The translations under genes and the position numbers were made by a program. From the IMG/VR virus record IMGVR_UViG_3300023296_001674: DNA of 25,260 bases; one strand, written 5' to 3'. The DNA comes from a virus. This document shows, in pieces, positions 3,108 through 25,248 of this stretch (position 1 is the stretch's first letter; every line of letters starts with the position of its first letter). A model generated the notes under the pieces. It was not told the origin of the DNA. It did not search any database and saw only the letters and a program-made list of their open reading frames with translations.

Positions 3108-3394
3108 TTGAGCAAACGAGATCGAATACAGTGTTAACGCGGAACGAGACTGCTAGGAACACTTAAAATATACCTAATATGGGCGCGTTGTGGATGGATT
3201 TCCTTTTGTGGAATGATAAAAGCAATGGTAGGAAGCAAAGCGACCTACTAGGGAAAGCGTTATATGCTTTCCTGATAAGTTATTTTGTATGGAAGTGCCA
3301 TTAAAGCAGAACAATTGGTTTGGCGACCAAGCACCTTCGGGGCATAAAATCTGCTACTACTATACTATTTTAATCATAACTAAGTGTCACAAAA

Positions 3395-3464
3395 TATTGT
3401 ATGGTGTAGTGGTAACACGCTGCCTTTATCGGCGGAGCCGTGGGTTCGAGTCCTACTATGATAT
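3395..3464 (+). tRNA. tRNA-like gene: 7/7 acceptor stem (two G-U), D-arm gtgt/acac, GGTTCGAGTCC T-arm, but only a 6-nt anticodon loop and no encoded CCA
   Basis: Manual cloverleaf; acceptor tattgta pairs with tatgata. Confidence 0.35.
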
Positions 3465-3822
3465 TTGGATTACGTTCAGTGTGCACACCGAACGCCACAA
3501 ATTATCTGTTATTATCGCGATAGTGATAGATAATGTTGGGTCACTTAGTTATGATTAAAGTTTTTAGGGTGTTCGTCTAGTGGATTAGGACGCGCCGCCT
3601 TGGGTAGTTGGAGTTCGATTCTCCTTAGCAACGGTTACGTAAATCCGCACGGTGAGACATTGGTTCGAATCCAATACATGTTAAAATAACGATTTCACAT
3701 GAGATGTATAGTTTTAATGGATAAATCAGGCATGAGCCTTGTGCGGCAAGATAGTGGGTTCGATTCCCCTTGCGTTGAATGTGAAATGATGCTATATTGG
3801 TTTTTTAATATAGGAGATAATA

Positions 3823-13765: not shown

Positions 13766-13843
13766 TGACTAGTAGCTCAGTGGTTTAGAGCGGGGAGTTC
13801 TAAACTCTCGACAGCGTTGGTTCAAATCCAACCTGGTCAACCA
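13766..13843 (+). tRNA. tRNA with anticodon CUA (amber-suppressor-like); U1-A72 acceptor
   Basis: D-arm GCTCAGTGGTTTAGAGC, anticodon stem gggag/ctctc, loop ttctaaa, T-arm gttggTTCAAATccaac, CCA encoded. Confidence 0.6.
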
Positions 13844-14825: not shown

Positions 14826-14900
14826 GCCCCTATAGTACAATGGTTAATATGATCGCCCGGTAAGCGATAGATGAAAGTTCGATTCTTTCTAGAGGCACCA
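14826..14900 (+). tRNA. tRNA-Thr, anticodon GGU
   Basis: Anticodon stem atcgc/gcgat perfect, loop ccggtaa, T-arm gaaagTTCGATTctttc. Confidence 0.8.
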
Positions 14901-14912
14901 ATAAATAACAAT

Positions 14913-15728
14913 ATGACAATGACACCACCAAATATTATAATTTATAGTAATCCACGTTCAGGAACCACATTGCTTCATCATACATTATTATTATTTTTTC
15001 AAGAATATTATGGTGATTATTATTGTGATTTACATGAATTCTTTACAACATCGCATATGACAACGAGACATCGTAATAATATAGATGAAATAAATTCCAT
15101 TACGTATGAACAGAATAACAATATATTAATAAAGACATACAAGCCAGCAGATACCGAAAGCAATGACTTCGAAGAAGAATTGCAACAACGAATTTCACAA
15201 TGGAACAATTGTGTAATAGCTGATAACAATCAGCCGTTTATAACAAAAATATTTCACAAAAATTTGATTGATCACAATTTTTCAAATACAATATTTGATC
15301 ATTCATTAAATTTGGTTCTTGTAAGAAAAAACGTACAAGATATGATATTGAGTTTTATAATATCAAATAGCAACAATAACTGGTTTTATTATGAAAATGA
15401 AAATATAGAAACATTGCGCGGAAGTTTGATTGGTGATATAGATATAATACGCATTCATTTGGAACGCAATAAATTATTTCTTGAAAATATACCCAATATA
15501 CCCAATGCATTAATCATTGATTATGATGAACTTAATGACTATGAATATTTTTATCAAGTTATTATAGATATGGGCATTGTTGATATTCGTGAATTGCATG
15601 CCATGGAAATATTTGATAACATACAGCTAAAACGTAAAATTATTCCAACACCATATACAATGGATCGTATAGATTATTTTAAGAATGCCAATGAAATAAA
15701 AACACTCATGGATGAATATTGTTCTTGA
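14913..15728 (+). CDS. sulfotransferase-like protein (PRSGTT PAPS-binding-like motif near the N-terminus), 272 aa from the ATG at 14913
   Basis: NPRSGTTLLH resembles the sulfotransferase 5'-PSB loop; the ORF track start at 14871 overlaps a tRNA. Confidence 0.45.
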   Translation: MTMTPPNIIIYSNPRSGTTLLHHTLLLFFQEYYGDYYCDLHEFFTTSHMTTRHRNNIDEINSITYEQNNNILIKTYKPADTESNDFEEELQQRISQWNNCVIADNNQPFITKIFHKNLIDHNFSNTIFDHSLNLVLVRKNVQDMILSFIISNSNNNWFYYENENIETLRGSLIGDIDIIRIHLERNKLFLENIPNIPNALIIDYDELNDYEYFYQVIIDMGIVDIRELHAMEIFDNIQLKRKIIPTPYTMDRIDYFKNANEIKTLMDEYCS

Positions 15729-17471: not shown

Positions 17472-18023
17472 ATGCGCGGAACATTAGAAGTGATTACTGG
17501 CCCAATGTTTGCCGGTAAGACGACAGAAATAATAAAACGATTATTATGGTCAAAACATCAAGGTAAATCAACAATTATATACAAACCAGCAATGGATGAT
17601 AGATATAGTGAAACTGAAATAGTTACACATACCAAATTTTCATACGAAGCAACATCCATCATTGATAGTTTTAATATCAATCCAACATACGATCATTATT
17701 TTTTTGATGAAATACAGTTTCATGATAAAAATATTGTTCCATCTATAACTAAATTATTAGATGAAGGAAAAAATGTAACGGTGGCTGGTTTAGACGCTGA
17801 TTATAAAGGTGTTGCATTTGCGAACACTGCTACGTTAATGGCGATGGCAGACGAAGTATTTAAGATAAAATCGCATTGTAGTTTATGTGGCAAAGATGCT
17901 GCTAAAACATTTAAAACTGGTTCGACAAGCGACCAGCGCATAGAATTGGGTGAAAATGACTTATACCGTGCCAGATGTAATGAGCATTGGTATGTATCAG
18001 GAACTGACGATAGTTTTTCTTGA
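17472..18023 (+). CDS. tdk: thymidine kinase (TK1 family)
   Basis: P-loop GPMFAGKTTE, C-terminal CxxC...CxxH zinc ribbon; SD agga. Confidence 0.8.
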   Translation: MRGTLEVITGPMFAGKTTEIIKRLLWSKHQGKSTIIYKPAMDDRYSETEIVTHTKFSYEATSIIDSFNINPTYDHYFFDEIQFHDKNIVPSITKLLDEGKNVTVAGLDADYKGVAFANTATLMAMADEVFKIKSHCSLCGKDAAKTFKTGSTSDQRIELGENDLYRARCNEHWYVSGTDDSFS

Positions 18024-18079: not shown

Positions 18080-19063
18080 ATGGATAACAACAATTACAAC
18101 GATTTAAAACAGCGTTTGGTTAATGCAGGATGTTTCGAACGAGCGACATCGCATTATGTTCTACGTATTACAGCAATTCTAATTGCTTATGTGGGAGCAT
18201 ATTTTGTTCTGCTTACACAGCCACTAGGATTGGTTGCAGTGGGTGCATTGATTATTGCAGCCTTTGCCAGCGTTCAGGCTGGTTTCATTTCACACGATGC
18301 TGGTGATGGCGGTATTACATCAAATAAGATGCTATCTACCGGTATGCGACAATTCTTTTTATCGTTTGTTACTGGTGTGAGTAGTTCATATTTTCATGCA
18401 CTACATAAAGTGCATCACAAAACAATGTTTAAAGGATCATCGAAATCATCCGACACAGTTTCAGAAAATGAATACGAAGGCAAATGGTTGAAGAAATTAG
18501 TTTCACGTGATGGTTTGTTATTCATGGTAACGATGGTTACATTACGGGGATTCACATTCAAATTTGAAAGTGTAAAATATATGCTTAAACACGCCAATAA
18601 AACCGCCGCAGATCAACTGTTGGTGGGATTGCACGTTGTAGCATGGCTGATCGTTCCAATGATGATTATTGGACCAGTAGCCATTCTAAACTATGCATTA
18701 TTGACGTTGTTGATTGGACCTTATATCGGAACGGTATTGGTTATTAATCATGCCGGTATGGTAACAGCAAACCGACAAATGCATTTGCCTAAATTTGAAC
18801 GCGTAGTAAATACTACACGCAATCTTGGTGACGGCGTTTGGAACAATCTGTTCTTCGGTGGTGTAAACAACCATATTGAACACCATTTGTTTCCGGGTGT
18901 GCCAGTGCCAAATCTAGGTGAAGCTAGAAAGATTACTGAAGCCTTTTGTGAAGAACGTGGTATTAAATACACCAAAGCTTCATATTTCAGCGCATTAATC
19001 GAAGCCAAAGACCATTTCAAGGGTTTGTCTTCACAGAGATTAGTTGCTGAAGCACTCAACTAA
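18080..19063 (+). CDS. membrane fatty-acid-desaturase-family protein (desaturase / carotenoid-ketolase-like His boxes)
   Basis: HDAGD, HKVHH and HIEHHLFPGVP boxes with several TM segments; SD aggag. Confidence 0.65.
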   Translation: MDNNNYNDLKQRLVNAGCFERATSHYVLRITAILIAYVGAYFVLLTQPLGLVAVGALIIAAFASVQAGFISHDAGDGGITSNKMLSTGMRQFFLSFVTGVSSSYFHALHKVHHKTMFKGSSKSSDTVSENEYEGKWLKKLVSRDGLLFMVTMVTLRGFTFKFESVKYMLKHANKTAADQLLVGLHVVAWLIVPMMIIGPVAILNYALLTLLIGPYIGTVLVINHAGMVTANRQMHLPKFERVVNTTRNLGDGVWNNLFFGGVNNHIEHHLFPGVPVPNLGEARKITEAFCEERGIKYTKASYFSALIEAKDHFKGLSSQRLVAEALN

Positions 19064-19073
19064 GGGAAACTAT

Positions 19074-19550
19074 ATGTTTAAATTTAATGTATGTAATTAC
19101 AGTGATTCACTGTATTCAATGGACAACTATACCAAGGCTATTGGTATAGTTGATCCAGATGAAAAAGTAACACCATCAGAAAAATATCATGTTGCACGAT
19201 GCCACGATATAGTAATGCAGGAACACCCTTGGGTGGCTCCCACAATAGACCAGTTTGTCGCAATTATGAATTTTGCAGAAGATTTTACAGACGATGATGT
19301 TGTAATGATTCATTGCTCTGCTGGTATATCACGCAGCACTGCAACTGCCATATTGTTATTAATGTTGCATGGCGCTGACGAAGAAGAAGCATTTAATGCT
19401 GTTGAACAAAATAGACCAAACATGAATCCAAACACATTGATTCTTCGCTTTGCTGATGAATTATTAGGAATGGATGGCGGTTTGATTGAATATCATAAAC
19501 AATGGATGGCGAAACGGGTTATTAAACCAGTTAGTTTCGCAGGACAATAA
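19074..19550 (+). CDS. dual-specificity (Cys-based) protein phosphatase
   Basis: CX5R signature HCSAGISRS; SD aaggga before the ATG at 19074 (ORF track start 19044 is less likely). Confidence 0.7.
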   Translation: MFKFNVCNYSDSLYSMDNYTKAIGIVDPDEKVTPSEKYHVARCHDIVMQEHPWVAPTIDQFVAIMNFAEDFTDDDVVMIHCSAGISRSTATAILLLMLHGADEEEAFNAVEQNRPNMNPNTLILRFADELLGMDGGLIEYHKQWMAKRVIKPVSFAGQ

Positions 19551-20328: not shown

Positions 20329-20436
20329 TTCCAAGTAGCTCAGATGGTAGAGCGTCTGACTGTGGAACAGATGAGCCTAAAGCTTTGAAGTTCAAATTTA
20401 ATCAGAATGTCGGCGGTTCGATCCCGTCCTTGGAAG
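20329..20436 (+). tRNA. tRNA-His-like (anticodon GUG, second copy) with a structured insertion of about 40 nt in the variable position; no CCA
   Basis: Acceptor ttccaag/cttggaa perfect, D-arm GCTCAGATGGTAGAGC, loop ctgtgga, T-arm ggcggTTCGATCccgtc. Confidence 0.5.
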
Positions 20437-20575: not shown

Positions 20576-20667
20576 GCCTCGGTAGCTCAGAAAAGCAACG
20601 TAAGTTGTAGTGTAGTAGCAGGTGACTGAACCTCACCGTGTCGGTAGTTCGAATCTATCCTGGGGCA
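20576..20667 (+). tRNA. tRNA-like gene, 92 nt: canonical 3' two-thirds (anticodon stem ggtga/tcacc, loop ctgaacc = GAA) with about 17 extra nt between D and anticodon arms; no CCA
   Basis: Acceptor gcctcgg/ctggggc, T-arm ggtagTTCGAATctatc. Confidence 0.45.
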
Positions 20668-20806: not shown

Positions 20807-21307
20807 ATGATCAGATTTTTTGATTACGAAGCAAGTGGATTGGACGCCGAGTCTTATCCTATTCAAGTTGCTTGGTGTGATGTGAATGGTGTTGGCGAAT
20901 CGCATTACATTATACCAAAAGATGAATGGACATATTGGGATTTTCACGCACAACGAGATGTGCATCATATTTCCAGAAGTATGCTTTATGAACAAGGAAA
21001 GCCAGTTGAAATAATCATTGAATTAATGGAAAAGGCATTGATGTGCCGTGATGTATATTGCGATGGTGGTCACTTAGATGAACATTGGCATGAACAGTTA
21101 TATGGTGATAACACCCCAACATTTTGGCTGAATGATTATTTTGCTTTTTTATATGATGTTGTAGACCCATTTAACAGAAAACCTAAATTACCGCATTTCT
21201 ATACAGAAGTGCGTGCCGCTGCTAGATTAGAATGTCCACCTACGCATGATGCCTTGGCTGATTGCCAATTTCTTGCTACTGGATATAGATTAGCAAAAGC
21301 GTTATAA
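20807..21307 (+). CDS. DEDDh-family 3'-5' exonuclease (DnaQ / RNase T / oligoribonuclease-like)
   Basis: Exo I FDYEASGLD, Exo III HDALADC; SD gagga. Confidence 0.7.
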   Translation: MIRFFDYEASGLDAESYPIQVAWCDVNGVGESHYIIPKDEWTYWDFHAQRDVHHISRSMLYEQGKPVEIIIELMEKALMCRDVYCDGGHLDEHWHEQLYGDNTPTFWLNDYFAFLYDVVDPFNRKPKLPHFYTEVRAAARLECPPTHDALADCQFLATGYRLAKAL

Positions 21308-21311
21308 CAAT

Positions 21312-21384
21312 GCCTCCGCCGCTGGGTCGGAGTTGGGACTTCTAATCCCAAACTGGATGAGTTCGATTCTCTCCGGGGGCACCA
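21312..21384 (+). tRNA. tRNA-Arg, anticodon UCU
   Basis: Acceptor gcctccg/cgggggc, 6-bp anticodon stem ttggga/tcccaa, loop cttctaa, T-loop TTCGATT. Confidence 0.65.
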
Positions 21385-21392
21385 ATATTTCC

Positions 21393-21421
21393 TTGACATT
21401 ATGATACAATTATGATACATT
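21393..21421 (+). promoter_or_regulatory. sigma70-like promoter (TTGACA, weaker -10 TACATT) spanning a tandem 11-bp direct repeat attatgataca x2
   Basis: TTGACA 21393-21398; repeat read directly. Confidence 0.35.
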
Positions 21422-21449
21422 TATCCTTTAACAGCAAGGAGTTTGTTCA

Positions 21450-21689
21450 ATGTCTAAAAAAGCAAAAAGAGAAAACGCGGCAAAACTTATTGCTGAAAAA
21501 GTAACTGCTGCTGAAAATTTAATCAAAGACGCAGAAAAAATCGCAAATAAGTATGGTTTAAGTTTTCGCCACAGTGTTGCATATGGCATGGGTGGCGAAT
21601 ATGAAGGTGACAAAAATTTACGAACAGATCGTTGGGGCGACGCTGATCCAGCAGAAGATGGATGGAGTCCTAGTTCACATAGTTGTTAA
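21450..21689 (+). CDS. small acidic protein, member 1 of a tandem triplicated family (79 aa)
   Basis: Strong SD aaggag; conserved SVAYGMGG.Y.GD ... DGWSPSS.C. Confidence 0.6.
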   Translation: MSKKAKRENAAKLIAEKVTAAENLIKDAEKIANKYGLSFRHSVAYGMGGEYEGDKNLRTDRWGDADPAEDGWSPSSHSC

Positions 21690-21698
21690 GGAGATAAA

Positions 21699-21929
21699 AT
21701 GGCAGATAAAATGACAAACGAAGAAGCAGCAAAGGCGATTTCTGAAAAAGTTTCAGAAGCATATGCTGCTATCAATGCAGCAGAATCAATAGCCGATGAA
21801 TATAAATTGGACTTTAATTTTAGTGTCGCATATGGCATGGGTGGTTATTATAACGGCGATCCAGAAGACCGCGACGACGATGATGATGAAATGAATGATG
21901 GATGGAGTCCTAGTTCACAGGGCTGCTAA
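21699..21929 (+). CDS. small acidic protein, member 2 of the tandem family (76 aa)
   Basis: SD aaggag; about 45% identical to member 1. Confidence 0.6.
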   Translation: MADKMTNEEAAKAISEKVSEAYAAINAAESIADEYKLDFNFSVAYGMGGYYNGDPEDRDDDDDEMNDGWSPSSQGC

Positions 21930-21945
21930 CAAACGGGATTAAGCG

Positions 21946-22176
21946 ATGACTGAATTTACAATGGAACAAGCTGCGCATGTTATTGCGTTAAATGTCGAAA
22001 AGATTAACAAACTGGCACAAGAAACTAAAAATCTTGCTAATGAGCATGGATTAGAGTTTGAATTACAATTGGGTGATACTACTGATGCGCCCTTGCAGTT
22101 TGACGAGAATTGGGATTCTAGCGACTGTGGTTATGATGACCCACCGCATTGGGATTCATCCGACTGTGAGTATTGA
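21946..22176 (+). CDS. small acidic protein, diverged member 3 of the tandem family (76 aa)
   Basis: Shared N-terminal A.HVIALNVEKINKLAQE..NLANEHGLEF pattern; repeated WDSSDC C-terminal motif. Confidence 0.5.
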   Translation: MTEFTMEQAAHVIALNVEKINKLAQETKNLANEHGLEFELQLGDTTDAPLQFDENWDSSDCGYDDPPHWDSSDCEY

Positions 22177-22192
22177 TTGAAAGGACATCGTT

Positions 22193-23101
22193 ATGCTTTT
22201 TATTGGGTCTACTGCATTTAAACAACATCATAATTTACCGGGAATTTTACCGAAAGATATTGATGTTATGGGAACATACGAAGATGTTTCAAAGTATGTA
22301 AAAAGTCTTCATGGTGATCTGGTTGCTGCAAGACCATTTGCGGAAGGTAAGAAATATCTTTTCGTTAAGGCTGGTGATCATAAATCACCCGAAACAATTA
22401 TTGAAGCAGAGATTGCGTGGGAAGGATCGTTAGCAGAAGAATTTATCAAATTGATGGATGATACTGCTGGACATACACGATATGCTACATTGAATGGTTT
22501 ATATACCCTTAAGATGTCGCATCGATATTTGAGAAACTCGCCACATTTTTTAAAGACAATGCGTGATATTCATTTTATGAGAACACTGAAGGCTAGAATT
22601 CCAGATGAGTTGAAGGATTTTTACAAACGGCGAATGGCAGCAACGTATGATTATTCTCATCCTAATTTGAGTGTTACGAAAAAGACATTTTTTGATGGTG
22701 ATGGTATTGATTATAAATATGACCATGATTCAATCCATGAGACAGTTAAGATTGGTGAACATCCGGCTTATTGGTATTTTAAGCCAGATACAAGTGAAGT
22801 TGCGGTAAGCAAGGATTTGTTTGAAGCACTTGATTATGAATCACGAATCAATTCGGTTTTGGAAGAGGCGTATGTTCTTGCTATTGAACGTTCACAGGTT
22901 CCACATCCGGGTGTATTAACACGTAGAAAGAGTTTTGTTCTTGCATTAAATAAAGTATGCTCAAGCATTACTTCTGGATGGTGGAGAGAGTTCGCATGGG
23001 AGAATTATGATTCTGTGTATGAACGATATGACGATTCATATATGTATCGTTTTAACGCTGGAATAGATAGTGGATTGGTAAAACCATTCAATGAGGGATA
23101 G
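22193..23101 (+). CDS. Pol-beta-superfamily nucleotidyltransferase (302 aa)
   Basis: N-terminal hG[GS]x(n)DhDh: IGSTAFKQHHNLPGILPKDIDVM; SD aaagga; TAG stop. Confidence 0.5.
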   Translation: MLFIGSTAFKQHHNLPGILPKDIDVMGTYEDVSKYVKSLHGDLVAARPFAEGKKYLFVKAGDHKSPETIIEAEIAWEGSLAEEFIKLMDDTAGHTRYATLNGLYTLKMSHRYLRNSPHFLKTMRDIHFMRTLKARIPDELKDFYKRRMAATYDYSHPNLSVTKKTFFDGDGIDYKYDHDSIHETVKIGEHPAYWYFKPDTSEVAVSKDLFEALDYESRINSVLEEAYVLAIERSQVPHPGVLTRRKSFVLALNKVCSSITSGWWREFAWENYDSVYERYDDSYMYRFNAGIDSGLVKPFNEG

Positions 23102-23103
23102 CA

Positions 23104-23352
23104 ATGATATATGTTTCTTTTTATAATTATTCATTGGATGCTTATGCAATAGTAGAAGCAGAAAACGTGGATATAGCAAAAGGCAAGTTTAAAAATTATT
23201 CTACCAGTGCTGATGGTTGGAGTAGTGGCGATGTGTTAAAATTTCCTAGAGTTAGCGTTCATGGAAATCTTTATACGATAGAAACTATTGAAGCATATAT
23301 ATCAGATACTCGTAGAAATTCAAAATCTATAGTTCTAATAAGGGATAAATAA
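23104..23352 (+). CDS. hypothetical protein (82 aa), coupled to the nucleotidyltransferase gene
   Basis: Starts 2 nt after the upstream TAG. Confidence 0.5.
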   Translation: MIYVSFYNYSLDAYAIVEAENVDIAKGKFKNYSTSADGWSSGDVLKFPRVSVHGNLYTIETIEAYISDTRRNSKSIVLIRDK

Positions 23353-23561
23353 TGAGAGATATAAATCGCATACCAGAAATTCTAGAGGCAATATATAATG
23401 CTTGGACTATTAATACTGAGTGTAGATTGGGACAAGTGCTTAATAATTCAATTCTTGGCAATCAGAGATTGGTTGATATTGAAGATGAGGAATTGCTTAA
23501 GGGGTTGAATGATTATTATGATAAATTAAATTTTAAGACGCATACAAAGGGTGACGTTTAG
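23352..23561 (+). CDS. hypothetical protein (69 aa), TAATG-coupled
   Basis: Overlapping stop/start. Confidence 0.5.
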   Translation: MRDINRIPEILEAIYNAWTINTECRLGQVLNNSILGNQRLVDIEDEELLKGLNDYYDKLNFKTHTKGDV

Positions 23562-23768: not shown

Positions 23769-24368
23769 GTGCGGAAGCATCTACATACACGAACACTGTT
23801 GACACACTACGGAGGTGTCTTCATCGATAATAATGTCGAAGAAGTTATAGTTCCGTCGTTATGGGAACAGCAGACATTTATTGATAAAGCAGGAAGTGAA
23901 ATTGTAAATCAGATGTGGGCATTTGAAGATAAGAAAAATCGCCCCGTATGTTTGATACCAGAAGTTACTGGTGTTATACAAGAAATGTGGCGCGATGATT
24001 GGAGTAAATCCAAACCAAAGCCATATTCTATTTTTTATGTGAATCGTTGTTATCGTTATGAACGACCACAGAAGGGTAGATATAGAGAATTCACACAAAT
24101 CGGATTAGAAATTCTTGGTGATACATCAGGGAATGATTACGATATGGCAATTAATTTATTGCAAAAGTGTCTCGATTGTTTTACTATAGATTATAAACTT
24201 ACAGAAACGGTACAACGCGGTTTGGCGTATTATGTTGATGATGGGTTTGAAGTCGAATGTGAGAAGTTGGGCGCACAGAAGCAAATTGCTGGTGGTGGTC
24301 GATACAATGAAGGTATTGGTTGGGCTATCGGCGTTGATAGATTAATATTGGGGATTGATGATGACTAG
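23769..24368 (+). CDS. minimal class II aaRS catalytic core of the HisRS/HisZ type (motif 1 region FEDKKNRPVCLIPEVT, motif 2 YRYERPQKGRYREFTQ, motif 3 GGGRYNEG), lacking the insertion and anticodon-binding domains
   Basis: Motif recall against E. coli HisS; an upstream ATG at 23741 with SD aaggag opens a different frame (MLRGTRL...), suggesting a frameshift at about 23790. Confidence 0.65.
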   Translation: MRKHLHTRTLLTHYGGVFIDNNVEEVIVPSLWEQQTFIDKAGSEIVNQMWAFEDKKNRPVCLIPEVTGVIQEMWRDDWSKSKPKPYSIFYVNRCYRYERPQKGRYREFTQIGLEILGDTSGNDYDMAINLLQKCLDCFTIDYKLTETVQRGLAYYVDDGFEVECEKLGAQKQIAGGGRYNEGIGWAIGVDRLILGIDDD

Positions 24369-24774
24369 TTTACACCTTATTACTTCACCGCGTGAATATG
24401 TGACAACTATGACACATAACTCGGATTATCTTCAGTCTTGCAAGACTAATAAACCATCATGGAAAAAAGCGGATCGTTCATTTCATACACTCGAAAATGG
24501 TGACAAATTATTTAATGTGTACTATGATAATGGTAAATTATGCGTGCAAAGATGGTATCAAAAAAGTGCTAAAATTGAATCTAATGATCTTCATCGATTG
24601 GATGGTCCAGCATATATATCTTATTATGAAAATGGCATGTATTATCGATCTTCGTGGTGGATCAATGGAAATTCTATTTCAGGCAAAGTGATGCGATCAT
24701 GGTTAAAAGAAAATAATATTTCTTCGCCATATTCAGATGAAGATCAAATGGCAATAATATTAAGGTGGGGATGA
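24355..24774 (+). CDS. hypothetical protein (139 aa) with an internally repeated LHR.DGPA...NG segment
   Basis: ATGATGA overlap with the HisRS-like stop. Confidence 0.5.
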   Translation: MMMTSLHLITSPREYVTTMTHNSDYLQSCKTNKPSWKKADRSFHTLENGDKLFNVYYDNGKLCVQRWYQKSAKIESNDLHRLDGPAYISYYENGMYYRSSWWINGNSISGKVMRSWLKENNISSPYSDEDQMAIILRWG

Positions 24775-25135: not shown

Positions 25136-25210
25136 GCTCTTGTAACATAATGGCTAATGTGAGCGTCTCATAAACGTTTGAAGAAGGTTCGATTCCTTCC
25201 TGGAGTACCA
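25136..25210 (+). tRNA. tRNA-Met-like, anticodon CAU
   Basis: D-stem acat/atgt, anticodon stem agcgt/acgtt, loop ctcataa, T-arm gaaggTTCGATTccttc. Confidence 0.7.
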
Positions 25211-25219
25211 ATAAAAGAC

Positions 25220-25248
25220 TTGACATAACTTTCAAGTTTTGATATATT
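25220..25248 (+). promoter_or_regulatory. sigma70-like promoter TTGACA-N17-TATATT at the window edge
   Basis: TTGACA 25220-25225, TATATT 25243-25248. Confidence 0.45.

Follow-up and report, generated by a model that had tools for sequence, protein, structure and literature searches.

Three tandem small proteins of a virus look like components of a phage-specific cassette with a nucleotidyltransferase

We investigated three small open reading frames (ORFs) at 21393-22176 of a viral DNA stretch of 25,260 nucleotides (nt) (IMG/VR record IMGVR_UViG_3300023296_001674), the whole of which is called the window here. An earlier note, made from the letters and translations of this DNA, had described the ORFs as a triplication of small acidic proteins behind a promoter with a tandem repeat, and had suggested an anti-defence or DNA-mimic function. 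We found that the ORFs are followed, 16 nt past the end of ORF3 and on the same strand, by a gene for a nucleotidyltransferase (NTase) that starts at 22193. ORF1-3 look like the small components of a phage-specific two-component cassette with this transferase. The features of the cassette are the following.

21393-21421, + strand: sigma-70-like promoter candidate; TTGACA and TACATT separated by 17 nt, and a TG in front of the second hexamer (extended -10 type)
21398-21419, + strand: exact tandem repeat of ATTATGATACA, two units, filling the promoter spacer; each unit has a -10-like TATGAT
21450-21689, + strand: ORF1, first copy of the putative small partner protein; 79 amino acids (aa), AYGMGGEY, tail GWSPSSHSC, net charge 0
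21699-21929, + strand: ORF2, second copy; 76 aa, AYGMGGYY, tail GWSPSSQGC, net charge -14
21946-22176, + strand: ORF3, third copy; 76 aa, two WDSSDC motifs, ends in CEY, net charge -15
22193-23101, + strand: the putative partner, a nucleotidyltransferase gene; 302 aa, DUF7277 (N-terminal NTase) and DUF7275 (helical C-terminal domain)

The four genes follow one another head to tail at intervals of 9-16 nt, with one promoter-like site upstream, and no terminator-like site was found within 21393-23500. ORF1 and ORF2 are 53% identical (BLASTP, E = 7e-23), and both contain SVAYGMGG.Y.GD and DGWSPSS..C. ORF3 is diverged, with 28% identity to ORF1 (pairwise E = 2e-4) and 21% to ORF2 (pairwise E = 0.08); it lacks AYGMGG, and its C-terminal end, WDSSDCGYDDPPHWDSSDCEY, contains WDSSDC twice. 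Its place in the phrog_899 family does not depend on ORF1 or ORF2, because it was assigned from its own profile match (E = 1.6e-3) and from a match to an unrelated family member, P0222 (BLASTP, E = 1.8e-9). The Shine-Dalgarno sequence AAGGAG precedes ORF1 (21436-21441) and ORF2 (21688-21693), and the site of ORF3 is weak. Thus, the description of three consecutive paralogs with shared motifs, a diverged third copy with a duplicated WDSSDC, and a consensus AAGGAG at two of the three was correct. The label "small acidic" holds for ORF2 and ORF3, which are strongly acidic (isoelectric point (pI) 4.05; net -14 and -15), but not for the neutral ORF1 (pI 6.7). A protein identical to ORF1 (P0001) is encoded on a 570,750-bp contig, so that the DNA probably comes from a very large phage. 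When the region was compared with 50,697 phage records at the nucleotide level, no match and hence no close sequenced phage was found.

The phrog_899 profile matched ORF1 (E = 2.5e-16) and ORF2 (E = 7.8e-16) in addition to ORF3, and the three align from profile positions 142-145 through 217-221 of 221. Against Pfam, NCBIfam and PADLOC, ORF1-3 gave nothing above noise, and sequence-profile searches of the PDB with the small family and the transferase family yielded nothing real. Accordingly, homology to a structural or housekeeping family, which the earlier note had regarded as speaking against its suggestion, was not found in the Pfam, NCBIfam, PADLOC, phrog or PDB-profile searches. An exhaustive hidden Markov model (HMM) search of 1.84 billion cluster representatives recovered 992 clusters (defined at 50% identity) with E <= 1e-3, including 173 with E <= 1e-10, and the match extended to the last residue in nearly all 992. 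Judged by sequence, ORF1-3 are true paralogs within a large phage-only family.

The family build begins with an amphipathic helix (T.EEA.K.IAEK...A..LI.EAE.IADE), continues with F.F..AYGMGG.Y (the AYGMGGxY hairpin) and a variable acidic linker, and ends in a nearly invariant G-W-x-[SAP]-S-S-x-x-C. Most members are strongly acidic (family median pI 4.45), and the linker of many, including ORF3, holds extra W-[DEN]-S-S-x-C motifs. In a 136-sequence alignment, the only invariant residues were the W, S and C of the tail. The Cys was exactly terminal in 140 of the 145 cluster representatives, with the two Ser present in 139 and 137 of those 140, and W-x-x-S-[ST]-x(0-2)-C occurred at or within 4 residues of the C-terminus in 142 of the 145. 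All three proteins of the window carry the tail: GWSPSSHSC in ORF1, GWSPSSQGC in ORF2, and HWDSSDCEY together with an internal WDSSDC in ORF3. In the structure model of the small protein, the tail is the low-confidence, flexible part, and the tail Trp is predicted to lie within the folded sheet.

The best match of ORF1 is ORF2, and the closest relatives of ORF2 in other phages are 58% identical to it, compared with 53% for ORF1. Because ORF2 is nearer to members from other phages than to ORF1, the arrays are old and not the result of a recent local triplication. The term triplication, understood as a local event, therefore does not apply; multi-copy arrays are ancestral and widespread.

The product of the downstream gene matched DUF7277, DUF7275 and phrog_2141, and its matches also included further nucleotidyltransferases and the lincosamide adenylyltransferase LnuA. 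The family is abundant, with more than 1400 clusters at 90% identity. Alignment of 63 homologs revealed 32 invariant columns. In the N-terminal domain, G5, S6 and E71 are invariant and D22 and D24 nearly so; in the C-terminal part, the invariant residues include K107, H110, K121, T122, D125, R147, H178, D179, H182, E224, E225, E232, R233 and K254, and the DUF7275 domain has many invariant His, Asp, Cys, Lys and Arg. The N-terminal half is a polymerase-beta-type nucleotidyltransferase with an intact G-S...D-x-D...E set, and the fold is of the MenT/AbiEii/ANT type, fused to a conserved helical domain. The resemblance to MenT structures was found at the level of this fold. A Foldseek search of the transferase model against the PDB gave nothing with E below 0.03, and the C-terminal DUF7275 domain had no significant structural match. 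The window transferase did not match PF08843 (AbiEii/DUF1814) at the sequence level, and only one of the 63 homologs did (E = 0.09); weak matches to DUF6036, another NTase family, were found in 5 of the 63.

MenT toxins have the motifs G[GS] and S/T-x-D, in which the Ser/Thr is a regulatory phospho-acceptor, and a Lys and an Asp in the C-lobe (PMC10435456). In the window transferase, K107 and D125 could be the corresponding C-lobe pair; their spacing is 18 residues, compared with 15-22 in MenT proteins. A HEPN motif (R-x4-6-H) was considered in the segment SHRYLKNSPH and rejected, as the second His is not conserved.

The link between the two families was followed in both directions. In the forward direction, 80 viral loci were fetched with the alignment of the 302-aa family, and their six-frame ORFs were searched with the small-family HMM. 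At least one small-family ORF lay on the same strand within 2.5 kb upstream in 70 of the 85 transferase-anchored sources. The number of copies per locus was zero in 15, one in 19, two in 32, three in 12, four in 2 and five in 5, so the copy-number variation that the earlier note had proposed to look for is real. In three of the 15 zero-copy loci, the sequence upstream was no longer than 365 nt, and in several of the rest copies lay downstream. When a non-iterated HMM was used and the training loci were excluded, 115 of 2440 ORFs on the + strand matched, compared with 0 of 2735 on the - strand. In the reverse direction, 77 viral loci were found with a degenerate DNA pattern encoding AYGMGGxY, and 44 of these lay within small-family ORFs. 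A transferase gene was present on the same strand in 37 of these 44, just downstream in 35 (from overlapping to 1.2 kb away) and upstream in two. The remaining 7 all had 1136 nt or less of downstream sequence, so that the transferase gene was found in 37 of 37 evaluable loci.

ORF clustering across 84 loci gave the same picture: only the small family and the transferase family were broadly shared, and the next real family occurred in 10 loci. A scan of prokaryotes (one genome per species; 185,579 species) found only 7 loci; each was on a metagenome-assembled contig and had the small copies upstream of the enzyme gene, indicating that the cassette is essentially viral. In one protein of 377 aa (P0082, from a 3754-bp ENA contig), a small domain (residues 1-76, ending in WNSSGGPAC) is joined to the transferase; the fusion may be genuine, or an artefact of a frameshift or of assembly. 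Unrelated phages share the pairing, including Otagovirus, RSP15 of the Ackermannviridae and the jumbo phage RsoM2USA, and two or three small genes lie directly upstream of the transferase homolog in Ralstonia phages RsoM2USA and RSP15 and in Pseudomonas phage psageK4e. Further carriers are Mosigvirus APCEc01, Acinetobacter phage Kimel and Phapecoctavirus nieznany (E. coli K-12), and the overall range covers T4-like, rV5-like, Otagovirus, Ackermannviridae, and jumbo or megaphages. In E. coli phage APCEc01, the cassette (gp165-167 and gp169) lies between an e.2-like gene and nudE; T4 itself lacks it. In nieznany, it comprises gp062, gp064, gp065 and gp066. The nieznany array is not strictly contiguous, as a vs.4-like gene, gp063, sits between the copies gp062 and gp064 (L172 1635-1910). 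The cassette neighbours in other phages include Sir2, Dcm, ADP-ribosyltransferase, macro-domain, Nudix and RNA-ligase genes.

Upstream of the array, the promoter candidate matches 10 of the 12 consensus positions. Promoter-like sites were not enriched in the region (18 found, compared with 15.1 expected in shuffles); because they are no commoner than in shuffles, the site at 21393 is to be read as a consensus match only. The tandem 11-bp repeat that the earlier note had placed inside it is exact (21398-21419) and is the sole exact tandem duplication with a unit of at least 11 bases in the window; in first-order Markov simulations of a window-sized sequence, 2.5% had any duplication of this kind. 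ATTATGATACA may be a candidate operator or a duplication that sets the spacer length. The extended pattern TTGACA-N14-TGnTAnnnT also occurs on the + strand at 2681-2709 and at 25220-25248, the latter directly 3' of a gene for the transfer RNA (tRNA) tRNA-Met (25136-25210). From their shared pattern, these sites may perhaps be members of one early-promoter class.

Given the strict linkage, the small proteins are probably obligate functional partners of the transferase. It also seems somewhat favoured that the partnership acts through the tail, W-x-x-S-S-x(0-2)-C. That the small proteins serve as acceptor substrates of the transferase is a more tentative proposal, which we infer from the features above. 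In this proposal, the small protein would consist of a long helix on a three-stranded sheet with its flexible, nearly invariant C-terminal tail exposed, and the tail would meet the conserved catalytic cleft of the transferase. The enzyme would then move a nucleotide or a nucleotide-derived group onto a tail Ser (or Cys), so that a single enzyme would give rise, early in infection, to several modified proteins with effector or carrier functions, for host takeover or counter-defence. Several substrates or sites fit better than a single inhibitor because the tail rather than the helix is conserved, the tail motif is repeated, and up to five diverged paralogs accompany one enzyme; the W-x-S-S-x-C repeats in the linker fit multiple modification or docking sites. 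In addition, the accessory neighbours (Sir2, Dcm and others) and the early-type promoter point to host takeover or counter-defence, and such a role of the cassette is possible.

Polymerase-beta-fold transferases that modify hydroxyls of small proteins are established, as in GlnD-PII, GlnE, MNT-HEPN, and CitX/MdcG with acidic acyl-carrier proteins, and GlnD has a second catalytic domain, which is helical, after its NTase domain. What the cassette shares with GlnD-PII, MNT-HEPN and CitX/MdcG is the pairing of an NTase-fold enzyme and a small protein, often acidic, in which an exposed segment bears a conserved hydroxyl. However, no sequence-level homology between these systems and the cassette was detected, and modification is hypothetical here. 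Furthermore, these systems have nothing that corresponds to the Ser-Ser-Cys C-terminal tail or to the multi-copy arrays.

Several points weigh against the acceptor-substrate proposal. Synteny is linkage and not contact, and the structure models are monomers of the enzyme and the small protein separately. Proteins are not the substrates of the enzyme's closest structural relatives, which act on tRNA 3' ends or antibiotics. A pseudo-substrate inhibitor or a docking anchor would be just as compatible with an invariant tail. Furthermore, 15 of the 85 transferase loci had no detectable upstream small copy, with some copies downstream and others maybe too diverged; the single fusion P0082 could be a sequencing or gene-calling artefact; and ORF3 and some other members do not terminate exactly in Cys.

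The main rival to acceptor substrates is a MenA1-like inhibitor. Here, the small proteins would act as antitoxin-like, stoichiometric inhibitors or timers that block the electropositive cleft of a MenT-like toxin, which might, for example, extend host tRNA 3' ends and shut off translation. MenA1 (68 aa) inhibits MenT1; a 32-residue helix suffices, and the C-terminus is dispensable. In the present family, by contrast, the invariant part is the C-terminal tail and not the helix, and as many as five diverged paralogs per enzyme gene would be unusual for a toxin-antitoxin pair. The MenT1-MenA1 pair of Mycobacterium tuberculosis differs from the cassette in this respect, as one to five partner paralogs here carry the W-x-x-S-S-x-x-C tail and MenA1 has no such tail. 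A search of the solved chains, MenA1 among them, revealed none that is similar in sequence to the small proteins, and no resemblance of ORF1-3 to MenA1 in sequence or fold was found. The enzyme has D-x-D, whereas MenT has the S/T-x-D that is used for regulatory auto-phosphorylation, and the cassette is restricted to phages, whereas the MenT/AbiEii systems are chromosomal. Moreover, tRNA genes lie within 3 kb in just 8 of 60 loci. We therefore regard an inhibitor function as unlikely.

Another alternative is that the small proteins are stand-alone anti-defence, DNA-mimic or decoy proteins acting on host targets, and that the linkage reflects shared early regulation or a shared pathway with no contact. 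The strongly acidic character of ORF2, ORF3 and most of the family, the early-type promoter, and the accessory regions with Sir2, Dcm and similar genes elsewhere are consistent with it, and the short motifs repeated in the acidic linker could possibly provide multivalent binding to a host protein. The small proteins also resemble Ocr, Arn, ArdA and anti-CRISPRs in being small, preceded by an early-type promoter, mostly acidic and located in accessory regions of virulent phages. However, ORF1 is not acidic, and the small proteins here are obligately linked to an enzyme gene; in view of this strict two-way linkage, a two-component system is more likely than a mimic acting alone. The earlier note had proposed structure prediction for DNA-mimic or sponge folds; no fold or sequence similarity to known mimics, anti-CRISPRs or sponges was found. 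We consider stand-alone action quite improbable, and less likely than a MenA1-like inhibitor.

Targeting adaptors, whose conserved tail would anchor to the transferase and whose variable hairpin and linker would recruit different substrates, are likewise less likely than that inhibitor and a shade more doubtful than mimics: the tail is conserved while the bodies diverge and several paralogs accompany each enzyme, but internal repeats of the tail motif are unexpected for a simple anchor, no target is known, and the idea rests entirely on inference.

The arrangement also recalls multi-precursor RiPPs (peptides made on the ribosome and modified after translation) such as class II lanthipeptides, whose leader peptides are long and folded: tandem small paralogs lie upstream of one enzyme gene, and each has a conserved N-terminal domain and, at its C-terminus, a short Ser...Cys motif, sometimes repeated per protein. 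Features looked for in RiPP precursors were found, namely the S-S-x(0-2)-C tail, internal W-x-S-S-x-C repeats, and arrays of one to five copies beside an enzyme. The difference is that the C-terminal motif is conserved here and not hypervariable, and that the motif Trp is predicted in the folded sheet. No RiPP enzyme (LanB, LanM, LanKC, LanC, YcaO or radical SAM), leader protease or exporter was found among the window genes tested with Pfam and NCBIfam, and no RiPP enzyme, protease or exporter family recurs across the 84 clustered loci. It is very unlikely that the cassette is a new, phage-borne maturation system for proteins or peptides. In such a system, the NTase would O-nucleotidylylate the tail Ser residues and DUF7275 would then eliminate or transfer the group, so that the tandem precursors would receive a Ser-Cys crosslink of the dehydroalanine or lanthionine type, or a prosthetic group derived from a nucleotide; this lanthipeptide-like or carrier-protein-like chemistry would employ an NTase in place of the kinase or glutamyl-tRNA.

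phrog_899 and DUF7277/DUF7275 are catalogued solely as "unknown function". Full-text searches by identifiers, including PF23940, PF23942 and VOG2418, found no paper on phrog_899, DUF7277/DUF7275 or their linkage, and a literature search on phage-encoded AbiEii-like transferases gave no description of the cassette. What is new here, and was missed by the earlier note, is the strict two-way linkage of the small family to a nucleotidyltransferase: what had been listed as tandem small acidic proteins is one half of an abundant (about 990 small-family clusters), strictly coupled phage system. If the partnership is true, it would define a new phage system of enzyme and partner that uses the fold of toxins directed at tRNA; such a system might modify proteins, act as a regulated host-shutoff toxin or serve in counter-defence. 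As E. coli K-12 phage nieznany and E. coli phage APCEc01 carry the cassette, these ideas are directly testable in E. coli phages.

The remaining features of the window are given below.

14871-15728, + strand: sulfotransferase-like gene, amid tRNA genes
17472-18023, + strand: thymidine kinase gene, amid tRNA genes
18080-19063, + strand: fatty-acid desaturase gene (E = 4.4e-30), unusual for a phage
19044-19550, + strand: dual-specificity phosphatase gene, amid tRNA genes
20807-21307, + strand: DEDDh/RNase T-like 3'-5' exonuclease gene (PADLOC DEDDh, E = 1.1e-9; Pfam RNase_T, E = 0.007)
21312-21384, + strand: tRNA-Arg(UCU) gene (ARAGORN), directly upstream of the cassette
23769-24368, + strand: 199-aa ORF resembling histidine-tRNA ligase (HisRS) (TIGR00442, E = 1.5e-38, model positions about 20-137 of 406)
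24355-24774, + strand: 139-aa ORF overlapping the HisRS-like ORF, with no Pfam match

ARAGORN called 27 tRNAs in the window, all on the + strand. Adjacency to tRNA genes was considered as a trait of the cassette family and dropped on the count given above (8 of 60 loci). The tRNA-Arg(UCU) next to the cassette, with its anticodon at position 30, scored below the Rfam gathering threshold. Conversely, Rfam alone detected tRNAs on the + strand at 20329-20436 (108 nt) and 20576-20667 (92 nt), which were missed by ARAGORN and may hold introns or be unusual. Two ARAGORN calls on the + strand stand apart: the tRNA at 13766-13843 has a CUA anticodon (labelled Pyl; possible amber suppressor), and that at 3394-3465 has an undetermined two-base anticodon. 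The exonuclease gene, flanked on each side by a tRNA-Arg gene, immediately precedes the cassette, and an exonuclease is annotated in Ralstonia phage RSP15 as well, about 1.7 kb upstream of the cassette there. The 199-aa ORF matches the N-terminal catalytic part of histidine-tRNA ligase only, and the two ORFs at 23769-24368 and 24355-24774 may represent a phage HisRS that is split, frameshifted or truncated. Finally, the sulfotransferase-like ORF contains a tandem repeat on the + strand, AATATACCC (15486-15506), of 21 nt with a period of 9 nt and about 2.3 copies.
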